From Rhodobacterales bacterium (lineage in GTDB: Bacteria; Pseudomonadota; Alphaproteobacteria; Rhodobacterales; Rhodobacteraceae): a DNA stretch of 64,000 nucleotides. The stretch is taken from positions 6,848 through 70,847 of the forward strand of contig JAACUH010000067.1 of NCBI GenBank assembly GCA_009993005.1, in the 5' to 3' direction. Numbering within the stretch: the first letter of the stretch is position 1; every line of letters starts with the position of its first letter. The notes beneath the pieces are model-generated. The model saw only the letters and a list, made by a program, of their open reading frames with translations. It had not been told where the DNA came from and made no database searches. Below, piece after piece: positions 43,516 to 50,060 of this stretch. Both the position numbers and the translations under genes were made by a program.

Positions 43516-44978
43516 TGCTCGTCATGGATCATGATCGCGCGGGCGGCTACTGGGGGGCGGTTTACGCCTTTTGCGCCGTCAAGGGCTTGCAGGTGGTGAT
43601 CGACGGCCCGGTGGGCTGCGAGAATCTGCCGGTGACCTCCGTGCTGCATTACACCGACGGCCTGCCGCCGCATGAGTTGCCCATTGTCGTCACCGGCCTG
43701 GGCGAGAGCGAGATGGGCGCGGGCACCGAGGAGGCGATGAAACGCGCCTGGCAGACGCTCGACCCGGCGCTGCCGGCGGTCGTGGTGACGGGCTCCATCG
43801 CCGAGATGATCGGGGGCGGCGTGACGCCGCAGGGCACCAATATCCAGCGCTTTCTGCCGCGCACCATCGACGAGGACCAGTGGCAGAGCGCGGACCGTGC
43901 GATGACCTGGATCTTTACCGAATTCGGCATGACCAAGGGCCGCATGCCGCCGGAGAAAAAGCGCGAGGCGGGCGATGCGCCGCGCGTCAATATCCTCGGG
44001 CCGATGTATGGCACGTTCAACATGCCGTCCGACCTGCACGAGATCCGCAGGCTGGTCGAAGGGATCGGCGCGCAGGTCAACATGGTGATGCCGCTGGGCG
44101 CGCATGTGGCCGAGATGCGCAATCTGGTGAATGCGGATGTCAACATCTGCATGTATCGCGAGTTTGGCCGGGGGCTCGCCGAGGTGCTGGGCAAGCCCTA
44201 TCTGCAAGCGCCCTTTGGCATCGAGAGCACGACACTGTTCCTGCGCAAGCTGGGCGAGATGCTGGGGCTCGATCCCGAGCCGTTCATCGAGCGGGAAAAG
44301 CATTCCACGATCAAGCCGGTCTGGGATCTGTGGCGGTCCGTCACGCAGGATTTCTATGCCACGGCCGAATTCGCCATCGTCGCGAACGAGACCTATACGC
44401 GCGGCGTGCGCAACTACCTCGAAGGCGATCTGGGCTTTCCCTGCGCCTTTGCCGTGGCGCGCAGGCGCGGCGCCAAGACCGACAATGACGAAGTGCGCCG
44501 CCTGATGCGGACCAAGCGCCCGCTCATCGTCATGGGGTCGATCAACGAAAAGATGTATCTGGCCGAGATGAAGGGCGGGCATGGGCCGCAGCCTGTGTTC
44601 ATCCCCGCGTCCTTTCCGGGTGCCGCGATCCGGCGGGCCACAGGGACCCCATTTATGGGATATGCGGGTGCCACCTACATGTTGCAAGAGGTCTGCAACG
44701 GCCTCTTTGACGCACTCTTTCACATTCTGCCGCTGGCGACCGAGATGGACGCCGCGCAGGCCACGCTGACGCCGTTGCGCCGCGACTTCCCCTGGGATGC
44801 CGATGCGCAGCGCCGCCTGGACGAGATTGTCGCCAGTCATCCGATCCTCACCCGCATTTCGGCGGCCAAGTCCCTGCGCGATGCCGCAGAGCGGGCCGCG
44901 CTGGATGCGGGGGCAGAGCGGGTCGTGCTGGAGACCGTCGAAATGCTTGAACCCAATCTGGGAGGATCAGGGACATGA
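43515..44978 (+). CDS. bchZ: chlorophyllide a reductase subunit Z
   Basis: ORF 43515..44978 with a 1-nt overlap with the bchY stop (TGATG). The N-terminus is [39 protein letters not shown]. Confidence 0.95.
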
Positions 44979-45199
44979 CCGACTTCACTTCGGATACGCC
45001 GGTTCTGCGGGCGCGTTCTGCGCCCCCCAAACGGGAATACTACGCCTATTTCGCGATCATCTTTCTGGCAGCCCTGCCGCTGGCGACCCTGACCTGGGCG
45101 CTGGGCGCGGCGCGCCGGTTCGAGATGCCGGAAAAAGGCCCCCTTGCGCGCGCCTGGACCCAGGCCCGCATCATCACGCCGCAGATCTTTTCGGCGTGA
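44975..45199 (+). CDS. pufQ: PufQ
   Basis: ORF 44975..45199, 74 aa, with an ATGA overlap with bchZ. It has a central TM segment and the C-terminal [17 protein letters not shown], resembling my recollection of Rhodobacter PufQ. Confidence 0.85.
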
Positions 45200-45281: not shown

Positions 45282-45356
45282 ATGACCTCCTGTCGAGACC
45301 CGGCCGCGGGGGACGTGCGGTGTCAGTACAATTTTTCGGAGGAAAAACATGGCTGA
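45282..45356 (+). CDS. pufK: pufK-like upstream small ORF (24 codons) overlapping the pufB start
   Basis: ATG 45282 is preceded by GGCAGGAG. The peptide is [24 protein letters not shown], and its stop TGA (45354-45356) overlaps the pufB ATG region. It sits at the position of R. sphaeroides pufK. Confidence 0.4.
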
Positions 45357-45504
45357 TAAATCCGACCTGTCGTTCACAGGTCTCACTGACGAGCAGGCAC
45401 AGGAGCTGCACTCGGTGTACATGAGCGGGCTGTGGATCTTCACGATCATCGCAGTCGTCGCGCATGTCCTGACGTACATCAAACTGCCCTGGTTCAGCTG
45501 GTAA
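45349..45504 (+). CDS. pufB: light-harvesting 1 beta polypeptide
   Basis: My own translation gives [51 protein letters not shown]. The ORF is too short for the track and has a GGAGGAAAAAC Shine-Dalgarno. Confidence 0.95.
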
Positions 45505-45519
45505 GGAAGGACACACACA

Positions 45520-45672
45520 ATGGCACAGTTCTACAAGATCTGGCTCATCTTCGACCCCCGCCGCGTGTTCGTGGCGCAGGGCGTGTTCCTTTTCCTGCTG
45601 GCAGCGATGATTCACCTCGTCCTGCTGAGCAACGAAAAGACCAACTGGCTCACGCTGGCTTTCGGCCAGTAA
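45520..45672 (+). CDS. pufA: light-harvesting 1 alpha polypeptide
   Basis: My own translation gives [50 protein letters not shown]. Confidence 0.95.
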
Positions 45673-45789: not shown

Positions 45790-46620
45790 ATGGCTCAGCT
45801 CAGCTTCGAAAGAAAATACCGCGTCCGAGGCGGGACGCTGGTCGGCGGGGATTTGTTCGATTTCTGGGTGGGCCCGTTCTATGTGGGCTTCTTCGGGGTC
45901 ACGACGATCTTTTTCGCCGTCCTGGGGACGATCCTTATATTTTACGGGGCTTCGCAGGGGCCGACATGGAATCCCTGGCTGATCTCGATCAACCCGCCGT
46001 CGCTTGAATACGGCCTTGGTGCAGCACCCCTGTTGCAAGGCGGCCTGTGGCAGATCATCACGATCTGTGCCATCGGCGCCTTTGTCAGCTGGATGATGCG
46101 CGAGGTCGAGATCTGCCGCAAGCTCGGCATCGGCTACCACGTGCCCTTTGCCTTTGGCATCGCGATCCTGGCCTATGTGACGCTCGTCGTCATCCGCCCG
46201 GTCCTGATGGGGGCCTGGGGTTATGCGTTTCCCTACGGGATCTTCAGTCACCTCGACTGGGTGAACAACACCGGCTACGCCTACGGCAACTTTCACTACA
46301 ATCCCGCGCATATGATCGCGATCAGCTTCTTCTTCATCAATGCTGTCGCGCTTGCCCTGCACGGGTCGCTCGTTCTGTCCGCGGTGAACCCCGCCAAGGG
46401 CCAGACCGTGCGCACGCCGGACCACGAGGACACCTATTTCCGCGACCTGATCGGCTATTCGATCGGGCCCTTGGGCATTCACCGTCTGGGCCTGTTCCTG
46501 GCGCTGAGCGCCGTGTTCTGGAGCGCGGTCTGTATCGTGATTTCGGGCACCATCTGGTTCGACGAATGGATCGTGTGGTGGGATTGGTATGCAGAATTGC
46601 CCTGGTGGGCGGACCTGTAA
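45790..46620 (+). CDS. pufL: photosynthetic reaction centre L subunit
   Basis: ORF 45790..46620, beginning [36 protein letters not shown]. Confidence 0.97.
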
Positions 46621-46634
46621 GGAGGACCTGACAA

Positions 46635-47561
46635 ATGGCTGAATATCAGAACATTTTTACCCAGGTTCAGATTCAGGGCCCCGCCGAAATGGGCATGGCC
46701 GGCGATCTGGACACCAACCGCGAGCGTACGACGAACACGCGGTTCTCGACCCTGCTGGGGTCATTCGGCAACGCCCAGATCGGGCCCGTTCATCTGGGCT
46801 CCTACGGGCTGGTGTCGGTGATCAGCTTTGCCGCCTGGTTTTTCATCATCGGGATGAACTTCTGGGCGCAGGTTGACTACAGCCCCGCGCTGTTCCTGCG
46901 CGAGCTGTTCTGGCTCTCGCTCGAGCCGCCTTCGCCGTCCTACGGCCTGGGCTTTGCGCCGCTCGATGAAGGCGGATGGTGGCTGATCGCCAGCTTCTTC
47001 TTCCTCGTCGGTTGCTGGACATGGTGGATCCGCACCTATCGGCGGGCAGAAGCGCTGGGCATGGGTCACCATGTCACCTGGGCCTTCACCTCGCTGCTGT
47101 GGCTCATCATGGTGCTTGGCCTTATCCGGCCGATCCTGATGGGAAGCTGGTCCGAGGCGGTGCCCTATGGCATCTTCTCGCACCTCGACTGGACCAACCT
47201 GTTCTCGATCACCTACGGCAACCTGTTCTACAACCCGTTCCACGCGCTCTCGATCGCCTTCCTCTATGGCTCGGCCCTGCTGTTTGCCATGCATGGGGCG
47301 ACGATCCTCGCGGTCAGCCGCTTTGGCGGTGAACGCGAGATCGAACAGATCGTGGATCGTGGCACGGCGTCCGAACGTGCGGCGCTGTTCTGGCGCTGGA
47401 CCATGGGCTTCAACGCCACGATGGAGGGTATCCACCGCTGGGCCTGGTGGTTCGCAGTCCTCACGCCGCTTGCGGGCGGCATCGGGATCCTGCTGACCGG
47501 GACTGTCGTGGACAACTGGTATGTCTGGGCGCAAGTCCATGGCTATGCCCCGCCGAACTGA
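46635..47561 (+). CDS. pufM: photosynthetic reaction centre M subunit
   Basis: ORF 46635..47561, beginning [16 protein letters not shown] and containing [22 protein letters not shown]. Confidence 0.97.
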
Positions 47562-47573
47562 GGAGAGTGAGAA

Positions 47574-47942
47574 ATGAGCAACAACGACTCCATGGTCGGC
47601 ATGTCCCCACGGACACGGCTCAAGGCAGAGGTCACCTACCTCATGCTCAAGGGGGCCGGCTACGCCGCTGTCCTTGTGCTGGGGATCTGGCTGGTGATCG
47701 CGGTCATCGCGGGGATCGGCCGGGCCCTGCCGGAACAAAGCCGCATGGCGCCTGATCCGGCCCCGCAGGCCTTTATCGAGTTTGCCGCCCGCGAAGCCGC
47801 GCCGGCCATGGTAGAGGAACCCGCAGCCGAAGAGGCGGCACCTGCCGCCGCAGAGGACGCAGCCGCTGCCGAGGCACCCGCCGAGGCTGCCGCGACCGAA
47901 GAGGCTGCGCCCGCCGCAGAAGAGACCGCCCCGGCGGAATAA
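47574..47942 (+). CDS. pufX: PufX homologue with extended Ala/Glu/Pro-rich C-terminal tail
   Basis: ORF 47574..47942 with a GAGGAGAG Shine-Dalgarno. LMLKGAGYAAVLVLGIWLVIAVIAGIGRALPEQSRMAPDPAP aligns by eye with R. sphaeroides PufX [39 protein letters not shown]. It lies directly after pufM, and no pufC is present. Confidence 0.75.
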   Translation: MSNNDSMVGMSPRTRLKAEVTYLMLKGAGYAAVLVLGIWLVIAVIAGIGRALPEQSRMAPDPAPQAFIEFAAREAAPAMVEEPAAEEAAPAAAEDAAAAEAPAEAAATEEAAPAAEETAPAE

Positions 47943-47948
47943 AGCATC

Positions 47949-47980
47949 AGGGGCGGACCGGCTGCAACCGGGCCGCCCCT
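47949..47980 (+). terminator. GC-rich stem-loop just after pufX stop
   Basis: AGGGGCGGACCGG-CTGCAA-CCGGGCCGCCCCT pairs at 12 of 13 positions. There is no T tract. Confidence 0.5.
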
Positions 47981-48119: not shown

Positions 48120-50060
48120 ATGACCCAGCCCCGATTTCCCGAAGATCGCCCCGCCACCCCGACGCTCGACCGCGTGACCGGCCCCGCCGATCTGCGGCAG
48201 ATGTCGGATGCCACGCTGACCGCCCTGGCGACCGAGGTCCGCAACGAGGTGATCTCGGCCGTGTCTGTCACCGGCGGGCATCTGGGGTCGTCGCTGGGCG
48301 TGGTCGAACTGGCCGTGGCGATCCATGCCGTGTTCGACACCCCGCATGACAAGCTGATCTGGGACGTGGGCCACCAGTGCTATCCGCACAAGATCCTGAC
48401 CGGCCGGCGCGACCGCATCCGCACCCTGAGGCAAGAAGGCGGGCTGTCGGGTTTCACCAAGCGTGCCGAGAGCGACTATGACCCTTTCGGCGCCGCGCAT
48501 AGCTCGACCTCCATTTCTGCCGCGCTGGGCTTCACCATCGGGCGCGACATGGGGATGGCGACGGGTGATGCGATTGCCGTGATCGGCGATGGCTCGATTT
48601 CCGCCGGCATGGCCTATGAGGCGCTCAACAACGCCGGGACCGAGGGGCGGCGGCTGTTCGTGATCCTCAACGACAACGAGATGTCCATCGCACCGCCGGT
48701 GGGCGCGATGTCGAAATACCTCTCGGGCCTCTATGGCTCGACCCCCTTTGGCGCGATCACCAAGATGGCCGAGGGGTTCGAGGCGGCACTCCCCGGCCCG
48801 ATCCGCGACCACGCGCGCCGCGCACGGCAGATGGTGACAGGGATCCCGGGCGGGCAGGGCACGCTGTTCGAAGAGCTGGGGTTCACCTATGTCGGCCCGA
48901 TCGACGGGCATGACATGGCGCAACTGTTGCCCGTCCTGCGCGCCGCGCGGGCGCGTGCGACAGGGCCGGTGCTGATCCATGTCTGCACGGTCAAGGGCAA
49001 GGGCTATGCGCCCGCAGAAACCAGCGCCGACAAATATCACGGCGTGAACCGGTTCAACGTCGGCACCGGCGAGCAGGCCAAATCGCGCCCCAATGCGCCG
49101 AGCTATACCAAGGTCTTTGGCGATGCGCTGACGTGCGAGGCGACGCATGACCCGCGTATCGTCGGGATCACGGCGGCGATGCCGTCCGGCACCGGACTCG
49201 ACATTCTGGGCAAGCGGTTTCCGGGCCGGGTGTTCGACGTGGGCATTGCCGAACAGCACGGCGTCACCTTTGCCGCCGCGATGGCGGCGAGCGGGCTGAA
49301 GCCGTTCTGCGCGATCTATTCGACCTTTCTGCAACGCGGCTACGATCAGGTCGTGCATGACGTGGCCTTGCAAAACCTGCCGGTGCGCTTTGCCATCGAC
49401 CGGGCGGGGCTGGTCGGCGCCGATGGGCCGACCCATGCGGGGTCGTTCGACATCGGCTATATGGCGGCGCTGCCCAATATGGTGGTGATGGCGGCGGGCG
49501 ACGAGGTCGAGCTCATGCATATGGTGGCGACTGCCGCCGCCCATGATGCCGGGCCCATCGCGTTCCGCTATCCGCGCGGCGAAGGCGAGGGGCTGGAGAT
49601 GCCCGCACGCGGCGCGGTGCTCGAGATCGGCAAGGGGCGCGTGGTGCAGGAAGGCAGCGACATCGCGCTCTTGTCCTTTGGCGCGCATCTGGGCGAAAGC
49701 CGGCGCGCGGCGCGGATCATGGAGGAGCAGGGCGCGAGCGTCACCATCGCCGACGCCCGCTTTGCCAAGCCGCTGGACCAGGCGCTGATCCGCCAGCTCT
49801 TGCGTCATCACAAGGCGCTGGTCACGGTCGAGCAGGGCGCGCAGGGGGGATTTGGCGCGATGGTGCTGCATATGCTGGCCAATGAGGGCTTGCTCGACGG
49901 GCGCTGTGCGGTCCGCACCATGACGCTGCCCGACCGGTTCATCGACCAGGCCGCGCCGGATGCGATGTATGCCGATGCGGGGCTCACGGCGGTGGACATT
50001 GCGGCAACGGCGCTGCAAGCGGCGGGGATGCAGGCCAACCGGGCCGGTGTCGTGGTCTGA
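48120..50060 (+). CDS. dxs: 1-deoxy-D-xylulose-5-phosphate synthase
   Basis: ORF track 48018..50060, trimmed to ATG 48120 ([19 protein letters not shown]...[13 protein letters not shown]...[13 protein letters not shown]). Confidence 0.95.

Follow-up and report, generated by a model that had tools for sequence, protein, structure and literature searches.

A long-tailed subfamily of PufX with a polyanionic, length-variable C-terminus in an environmental lineage of Rhodobacteraceae

Why would a PufX protein carry a long acidic tail? PufX is the classic case of a small subunit reshaping a photosynthetic core complex: its presence opens the light-harvesting ring, lets quinones exchange and drives the formation of dimers. 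In every solved PufX structure known to us, a short C-terminus lies on the L subunit of the reaction centre (RC-L). The question is raised by a stretch of 64,000 nucleotides, here called the window, from the genome of a Rhodobacterales bacterium (GCA_009993005.1, contig JAACUH010000067.1, positions 6,848 to 70,847 of the forward strand). At positions 47574–47942 of the window, on the plus strand, pufX encodes 122 amino acids (aa) and ends in a long segment dominated by Ala, Glu and Pro. The explanation that best accounts for the whole, with a probability of roughly 55%, is that this end is a lineage-specific, selected module that forms a periplasmic polyanionic brush or tether by the docking face for cytochrome c2 or cytochrome cy.

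That the open reading frame (ORF), which runs from ATG to TAA over 122 codons plus stop, is a genuine PufX is virtually certain. The protein scored 89.9 bits with the Pfam family PF11511 (RhodobacterPufX), whose gathering score is 25, residues 1–63 covering profile positions 1–63 of 67, and its top matches in the Protein Data Bank were PufX chains of Rhodobacter sphaeroides (2DW3, 2NRG, 7PIL and others; E ~6e-7; window residues 8–66). An NCBIfam scan of the protein returned low-complexity matches to GltJ and CdhD only, which are meaningless. The structural hallmarks of PufX are present, namely a long transmembrane (TM) helix, the (L/M)KGAG(Y/W)A motif, a basic N-terminal side and a C-terminal LPE...DP turn. 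LKGAGYA occupies residues 25–31 (47646–47666) and is followed by the hydrophobic helix and then by GRALPEQSRMAPDPAP. The helix as a whole is predicted to span residues 12–51 (47607–47726) with an AlphaFold2 predicted local distance difference test (pLDDT) score of 87–98, in a run on a 21-sequence alignment, and it falls within the Pfam match. It leads into a conserved periplasmic turn, LPEQSRMAPDPAP (residues 52–64; 47727–47765). Among close relatives (alignment A1), K26, G27, A28, G29, Y30 and A31 of the motif and L52, P53, D61 and P62 of the turn are invariant. Further, the gene order is pufQ-B-A-L-M-X followed by dxs, with pufX in the slot held by pufC in other taxa, and the pufQBALMX-dxs layout is diagnostic of PufX-type photosynthesis gene clusters in Rhodobacteraceae (PMC6052148). 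A preliminary description made from the sequence alone had recognised a PufX homologue by its KGAG motif, single TM helix and post-helix G..LP...APxP; these motifs are found in the protein, the profile match, structural matches and operon position bear the assignment out, and an ORF unrelated to PufX, which the description had named as its refutation, is excluded by the homology search. Typical PufX proteins have about 75–85 aa and a short C-terminal segment, and this one has 122. Length is typical of the family and does not define it, and the protein is filed as PufX, long-tail subfamily.

The extra length has a distinctive composition and a predicted architecture of its own. Residues 73–122 carry a net charge of −13 and include 25 Ala, 13 Glu, 6 Pro, 1 Asp and 1 Arg but no Lys, in agreement with the 122 aa and the Ala/Glu/Pro tail of about 50 residues first described. 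A lineage-specific junction helix, APQAFIEFAAREAAPAMV, is predicted at residues 63–80 (47760–47813; pLDDT 74–81). Beyond it, the Lys-free polyanionic Ala/Glu/Pro tail of residues 81–122 (47814–47939) was modelled as coil with a pLDDT of about 40, a ~42-residue segment that is predicted to be disordered with a net charge of about −0.2 per residue. The protein ends in a semi-conserved distal module, ATEEAAPAAEETAPAE (residues 107–122; 47892–47939), and endings of this type, T[ED]E[AT]APA...A[SP]ASE, recur in most long forms. The disordered periplasmic tail proposed in the preliminary description is supported by the low pLDDT and by the topology of PufX, with the N-terminus inside and the C-terminus outside (PMC8208714). 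Three features were absent from that description: the conserved junction helix, the variation of length by repeat slippage and the strong purifying selection.

The most trivial account of such a tail would be an artefact, in which a lost or mis-sequenced stop codon or a frameshift fuses PufX to non-coding sequence on its 3′ side. DNA of 67% GC has few stop codons, so that long accidental read-through is possible, and frameshift or fusion artefacts do occur among metagenomic PufX entries. P0060, P0078, P0081 and P0094 join a PufX head to unrelated sequence, or the N-terminus of PufM to PufX, and length alone is therefore an unsafe criterion for the long-tail subfamily. The 122-aa protein, however, was indexed in identical form in 61 blocks of an assembly collection and recurs across numerous independent assemblies; 24 contigs were read, the longest of 464 kb. 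Frame, composition and terminal motif are kept in relatives that are 60–70% identical, substitutions fall at third codon positions, and a hairpin directly follows the stop. The other reading frames of the tail region are rich in Arg and Gly, as expected of random GC-rich read-through. The artefact reading is effectively refuted, and the earlier stop or sequence error that the preliminary description had allowed for is excluded at the DNA level.

A comparison with the nearest allele indicates how the tail evolves. This allele (L061/L062) encodes 114 aa next to a PufM that is 98% identical, and differs from the window by indels of 27 and 3 nt and by substitutions at third codon positions. The tail shows 16 synonymous and 2 non-synonymous changes relative to L062, giving a dN/dS of 0.028 (0.03 when rounded) against 0.124 for the head; the tail estimate may be rough, because its dS of 0.79, about four times the 0.21 of the head, possibly reflects misaligned repeats in part. 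The indels fall among imperfect in-frame tandem repeats with periods of 21 and 18 nt (47819–47883), detected with Tandem Repeats Finder (TRF). Across alleles the TRF periods are 15, 18, 21, 24 and 45 nt, all multiples of three. Alleles of 151, 166 and 181 aa are separated by steps of one 15-residue unit each, and those of 138–144 aa differ by PAAEA-like units, while the post-DP tail ranges from 31 to 118 residues among long forms. In the 166-aa allele a 45-nt tandem repeat (L065:688-863) is present in 3.9 copies with 93% matches within the pufX tail. Judged from these alleles, the tail behaves as an in-frame variable-number tandem repeat (VNTR) whose frame and end are preserved.

Repeats of this kind could arise by neutral, low-complexity expansion of an unconstrained periplasmic C-terminus through replication slippage in GC-rich DNA, in which case the tail would be tolerated and functionless. 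The rapid change in copy number between near-identical alleles and the wide range of lengths fit such an origin, as does the relaxed third-position GC content (GC3) of the tail, 0.66 compared with 0.83 in pufL and pufM. Neutrality, on the other hand, sits poorly with the 16 synonymous versus only 2 non-synonymous differences from the nearest allele. All 35 distinct long alleles are free of frameshifts and early stops, and the ...ASE-type end is kept. Lys is wholly absent, and charge density is roughly constant at any length. Moreover, in a scan of all six-frame ORFs of at least 60 aa in the 3.4-Mb genome, a comparable acidic A/E/P/D 40-mer occurs in only five ORFs, with PufX scoring highest. 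Neutral expansion is improbable on this evidence, and the tail is very probably both translated and selected, as read from the pattern of substitutions and indels. The relaxed codon usage of the tail (47790–47939) involves many GCA and GCT codons; together with the high dS, it may stem from selection that disfavours perfect repeats, from weaker translational selection or from misaligned repeats.

How widespread is the long form? A word-indexed search of 5.8 billion proteins retrieved 60 PufX clusters, about half of which (at least 30 at 90% identity) were of 95–181 aa with a like tail. Nearly all of these long-form clusters come from metagenomes or metagenome-assembled genomes (MAGs) and are without a name or labelled 'hypothetical'. 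When 1.84 billion representatives at 50% identity were scanned exhaustively with HMMER, 45 PufX clusters were found, most of them of 71–89 aa and about six long-tailed (P0007, P0010, P0016, P0069, P0071 and P0072). Among genome representatives, the family was sampled with one genome per genus for 401 genera; a PufX match was present in 74, and 30 loci were read. All 30 encode a PufX of 74–81 aa except the window genome and G342 (95 aa, ending ...AASE), so the long form is clearly present in 2 of the 74 PufX-positive genera. The window genome's genus in the Genome Taxonomy Database (GTDB) has no other representative among the sampled genomes.

The conserved DP of the turn offers a common reference point for comparing these ends. 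Over 146 distinct sequences, a set in which long forms are over-represented because long queries were used, the post-DP segment has a median of 17 residues, compared with 60 in the window PufX; it measures 5–20 residues in 111 of them and at least 30 in 35, the threshold by which we define the long form. A junction of the type (A/Q)(P/S)QAF(I/V/R)(E/D)x(A) is found in every long form except P0071, and its core version, APQAF[IV][ED]xA, in no short form. All 35 long forms lack Lys, their few Arg residues are confined to the first post-DP positions, their net charge lies between −3 and −23, and most end in T(E/D)E(A/T)APA...A(S/P)ASE. P0071 combines a classical DPTPW junction with a different, 44-residue acidic tail of Asp, Gly and Thr and is a partly independent case. 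In Yoonia sp. 67-2 (L005) and in its nearest tree neighbour, the Rhodobacterales MAG L008, PufX has a short acidic end of A/E/P type (DPINRPAPVEEPAADAAVAE) that resembles the tail in miniature. The sequences of P0071, L005 and L008 hint that the PufX C-terminus became acidic more than once.

Judged from these sequences, the tail is rare among genome representatives and characteristic of a sizeable environmental lineage of Rhodobacteraceae. The statement in the preliminary description that known PufX proteins have about 80 aa agrees with the 74–81 aa of the genome representatives and with the 111 short post-DP segments. Its remark that the tail is unusual stands for PufX of cultured organisms and genome representatives, and fails for the lineage as a whole, of which the tail is a hallmark with dozens of metagenomic members. 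A literature search for a long, acidic or disordered PufX tail found none, and the reviews and structures treat proteins of about 80 aa. Long-tailed PufX is therefore a subfamily absent from the searched literature, within a protein family that is already known.

The phylogenies indicate where the module came from. With the tail excluded, the PufX heads of seven of eight long-tail loci grouped with one short form, L025 (support 95/82), and monophyly of all eight was not rejected (approximately unbiased (AU) test, p = 0.61). Similarly, the first 340 residues of Dxs placed all nine long-tail loci and L025 in one group (Shimodaira–Hasegawa-like approximate likelihood-ratio test (SH-aLRT) 89), and monophyly was again not rejected (p = 0.275). 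PufM, in contrast, divided the long-tail loci into two well-supported clades, and their monophyly was rejected (difference in log-likelihood (delta-lnL) 126, AU p = 6e-26). The discordant signal was located in PufL 41–120 and PufM 1–160, which place the window genome with Yoonia/Loktanella-type sequences; from PufM residue 160 through Dxs, the window is at least as close to the other long-tail loci. A horizontal move of pufX, one reading of the PufM split, was rejected, since the long-tail loci stay together in the trees of the PufX head and of Dxs, and from the position of the discordance the exchanged piece is more likely the pufL–pufM 5′ region. The trees argue that the long C-terminal module most probably had a single origin in an under-described lineage of Rhodobacteraceae, and suggest that a later recombination with a breakpoint inside pufM swapped the pufL–pufM 5′ region in one sub-lineage. 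Because the tree groups were set up only once the first tree was known, the result on origin is suggestive and not formal.

The closest heads, with up to 73–80% identity, belong to the short PufX proteins (74–81 aa) of Cognatiyoonia, Yoonia, Loktanella and other members of the Roseobacter group, which share the operon structure and a nearly identical TM segment, VLVLxIWLVIAVIAGIGRALPE. Unlike the window protein, they end in ...DP(I/T)(N/P)xS and about 12 further residues. The PufX of Cereibacter (Rhodobacter) sphaeroides (82 aa; 2NRG, 2DW3, 7PIL, 7F0L, 7VA9 and others) is more distant. It belongs to the same Pfam family, occupies the same slot after pufM and shares the KGAG motif, the long bent TM helix and the LP(E)...P turn, aligning over window residues 8–66 with about 35–40% identity over the shared part. 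There, the chain ends some 16 residues past the alignment in a hydrophobic, partly trimmed segment, whereas the window protein continues into a helix and a 42-residue polyanionic tail. Similarity to the PufX of Rhodobacter veldkampii (7DDQ) is weak (E 0.007). In that monomeric RC-LH1-PufX complex of reaction centre and light-harvesting antenna 1, PufX forms a single TM 'cross-brace' with a periplasmic C-terminal loop bound to RC-L (PMC8208714); the loop is short, structured and fixed by Arg54/Arg56 and Tyr60/Tyr78, and it has no acidic tail, unlike the window protein.

The trimming seen in R. sphaeroides gives rise to a further explanation. Since R. sphaeroides PufX is trimmed at its C-terminus, as the preliminary description had noted and the literature states (PMC5538271), the tail could be a C-terminal pro-segment that is translated, translocated and then cleaved by processing like that of R. 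sphaeroides and R. capsulatus PufX, leaving a mature subunit of ordinary size. It would then serve biogenesis only, for example in an insertion of the C-terminus outwards that is assisted by the proton-motive force, or in holding PufX in a soluble or unassembled state until docking on RC-L. The phmmer alignment with R. sphaeroides PufX stops at window residue 66 (chain residue 69), near the trimmed region, and the whole extra module therefore lies beyond that point, although homology of the cleavage position is an assumption. The composition is suitable as well, because Lys/Arg-free acidic segments are, by the 'positive-inside' rule, the kind that crosses the membrane easily. However, the strong constraint at the protein level (dN/dS 0.03) and the conservation of junction helix and terminal motif across the clade go beyond the needs of a throw-away peptide, and short PufX proteins insert without any such segment. 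A pro-segment is the main rival reading, a serious possibility that we consider unlikely.

The preferred reading, a selected brush or tether at the donor side, can be set out as follows. PufX would here be a subunit of an LH1-only, PufC-less RC-LH1 core complex. The roughly 17 mostly hydrophobic residues that follow LPE..DP in ordinary PufX have been replaced by a three-part module of a short helix (residues 63–80), the polyanionic segment and the distal motif, and tail length changes quickly via in-frame slippage of repeats of 15–45 nt. The helix would replace the end that usually hugs RC-L, and the tail would project into the periplasm. In solved complexes PufX's C-terminal portion winds around RC-L on the periplasmic side (PMC8589327), and the N-terminus is cytoplasmic. 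The C-terminal loop is exposed to the periplasm, where it sits in the position taken elsewhere by the tetraheme subunit, next to the central c2 site, which it leaves free (PMC8208714). Because PufX has this orientation, with its C-terminal part on RC-L at the periplasmic face, the tail would be exported, and export would be favoured by the absence of basic residues. Polymer scaling (our own calculation) gives 42 disordered residues a radius of gyration of about 18 Å and an end-to-end distance of about 45 Å or more, which is enough to sweep the donor face of the reaction centre.

Over that face, beside the gap in LH1, the tail would form a flexible negative brush or tether about 40–60 Å across. 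Its action is likely to be electrostatic or steric, by steering or retaining the basic heme-edge face of cytochrome c2 or of membrane-anchored cytochrome cy. It could also block close packing or dimerisation of core complexes; in R. sphaeroides, C-terminal truncation of PufX abolishes dimerisation. The preliminary description had likewise supposed that the tail could influence cytochrome c2 docking, dimerisation or processing. That the tail is retained on the mature complex and acts at the donor side is a tentative proposal, to which we give somewhat less than even odds.

Several points weigh against this reading. In R. sphaeroides, processing takes away the C-terminal residues of PufX, and the tail here could be lost in like manner. 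With a net charge of −8, the genome's cytochrome c2 homologue need not be drawn in by simple attraction. A few other proteins of the genome also have low-complexity segments of Ala, Glu and Pro, and linkers of this kind are common in high-GC Alphaproteobacteria, so that such a composition is not in itself specific. Tail length varies almost four-fold among relatives, which speaks against a precise structural role; the distal motif was picked out post hoc from an alignment of low-complexity sequence; and the synonymous count of the tail may be inflated by misaligned repeats or a relaxed codon bias. Simple electrostatic capture of a basic cytochrome c2 was tried as an explanation and is weakened by the charge of the homologue, despite the basic patch (DRRARGKM) that is kept before the Met ligand.

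A second candidate partner has an anchor of its own. Cytochrome cy, as known from Rhodobacter capsulatus and its relatives, consists of a TM anchor, a flexible Ala/Pro/Glu-rich linker and a cytochrome c domain, and it shares with the window PufX the design of an anchor followed by a flexible acidic periplasmic segment, within one and the same electron-transfer neighbourhood. The linker, however, carries a folded heme domain and the PufX tail only a short terminal motif; the likeness is one of composition, not homology. Outside the window, the genome encodes a cytochrome cy-like protein (L072, G000:C157:24748-25260) that is anchored by a TM segment; its acidic A/E/P linker includes ETEAAPVEE, a sequence similar to ATEEAAPAAEE of the PufX tail, and the regular expression TE{1,2}AAP[AV]A?EE matches only these two proteins genome-wide. 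EEAAPVEE is present in G342, the other long-tail genome, and absent from eight relatives with short PufX, a pattern that may simply track phylogeny. As the expression was built post hoc and the linker motif follows phylogeny, the resemblance is treated as a lead only. In its most specific form, the proposal would make the tail a functional tether composed of anchor, variable spacer and terminal motif (T-E-E-A-A-P-A...A-S-E), which would recruit or retain cytochrome c2, the cy-like cytochrome or the bc1 complex and partly stand in for a lost PufC subunit, with repeat slippage tuning its reach; we regard this version as a long shot.

The genome (3.4 Mb, 99.6% complete, 67% GC) contains a single LH alpha/beta pair and therefore no LH2. 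A search with PF02276 (PufC) found no match in it, and the control genomes were silent too. BchE (L070, G000:C120:8326-9825; 822 bits) and the large subunit of RuBisCO (L071, G000:C24:62246-63139) are present, and AcsF had no match in the window genome. BchE and RuBisCO without AcsF or LH2 form an unusual mix for a Roseobacter-type phototroph, and this gene content may point to a microaerobic, anaerobic or CO2-fixing lifestyle.

Periplasmic C-terminal additions to small single-helix subunits are known from antenna proteins. In Thiorhodovibrio strain 970, extensions of LH1 alpha make extra contacts with the C-subunit of the reaction centre (PMC10214105). These extensions differ from the window tail in belonging to another protein and in being shorter and not polyanionic. 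The same holds for PucA of Rubrivivax gelatinosus, which has an Ala/Pro-rich C-terminal extension.

The long-tailed subfamily would mean that a widespread environmental lineage has rebuilt the end of PufX into a selected, polyanionic, length-variable and disordered tail adjoining the cytochrome docking site. It would offer a natural experiment in the tuning of donor-side electrostatics and packing of RC-LH1, and in the reason for the C-terminal processing of PufX. The subfamily is hidden by annotation filters that go by length and by the Pfam model with its 67 positions, and most of its members are labelled 'hypothetical'. As a hypervariable in-frame VNTR, the pufX tail could be used for strain typing in metagenomes, and because the puf operon looks mosaic in this lineage, pufM-based phylogenies of such phototrophs can mislead.

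The remaining genes of the operon are all on the plus strand. They comprise pufQ (74 aa; 44975–45199; PF05398, 102.9 bits), pufB for LH1 beta (51 aa; 45349–45504; PF00556), pufA for LH1 alpha (50 aa; 45520–45672; PF00556), pufL (276 aa; 45790–46620; from the ORF list, with PF00124 found on the identical locus L030) and pufM (308 aa; 46635–47561; PF00124, 337 bits), whose 5′ half is discordant with pufX and dxs in trees and sliding-window identities. A Shine–Dalgarno sequence, GGAGAG, was read directly at 47561–47566, 8 nt before the pufX start. Downstream, 8 nt past the pufX stop, lies a GC-rich hairpin with a 12-bp stem and one mismatch (47950–47979), also read directly; a simple terminator scan 3′ of pufX made no call at it because it has no T-run. 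It is followed by dxs (646 aa; 48120–50060; ORF list and called genes). LH1 alpha ends soon after its conserved Trp, compared with 56–59 aa for PufA at other long-tail loci, and by this sequence comparison its periplasmic C-terminus is unusually short in the window genome.

Elsewhere in the genome, ribosomal protein L3 (G000:C71, minus strand, offset 1941) has an apparent C-terminal Ala/Glu-rich extension of about 60 residues (...EAAAAEAAAAEAAAAKAAAEAEEAAMQAAEAEAANATPADD...). Another protein (G000:C90, plus strand, offset 46721) consists of an N-terminal TM anchor, about 200 residues of nearly pure Ala/Glu repeats with some Val and Gly, and a small C-terminal domain, and is another anchored poly-anionic low-complexity protein of the window genome.

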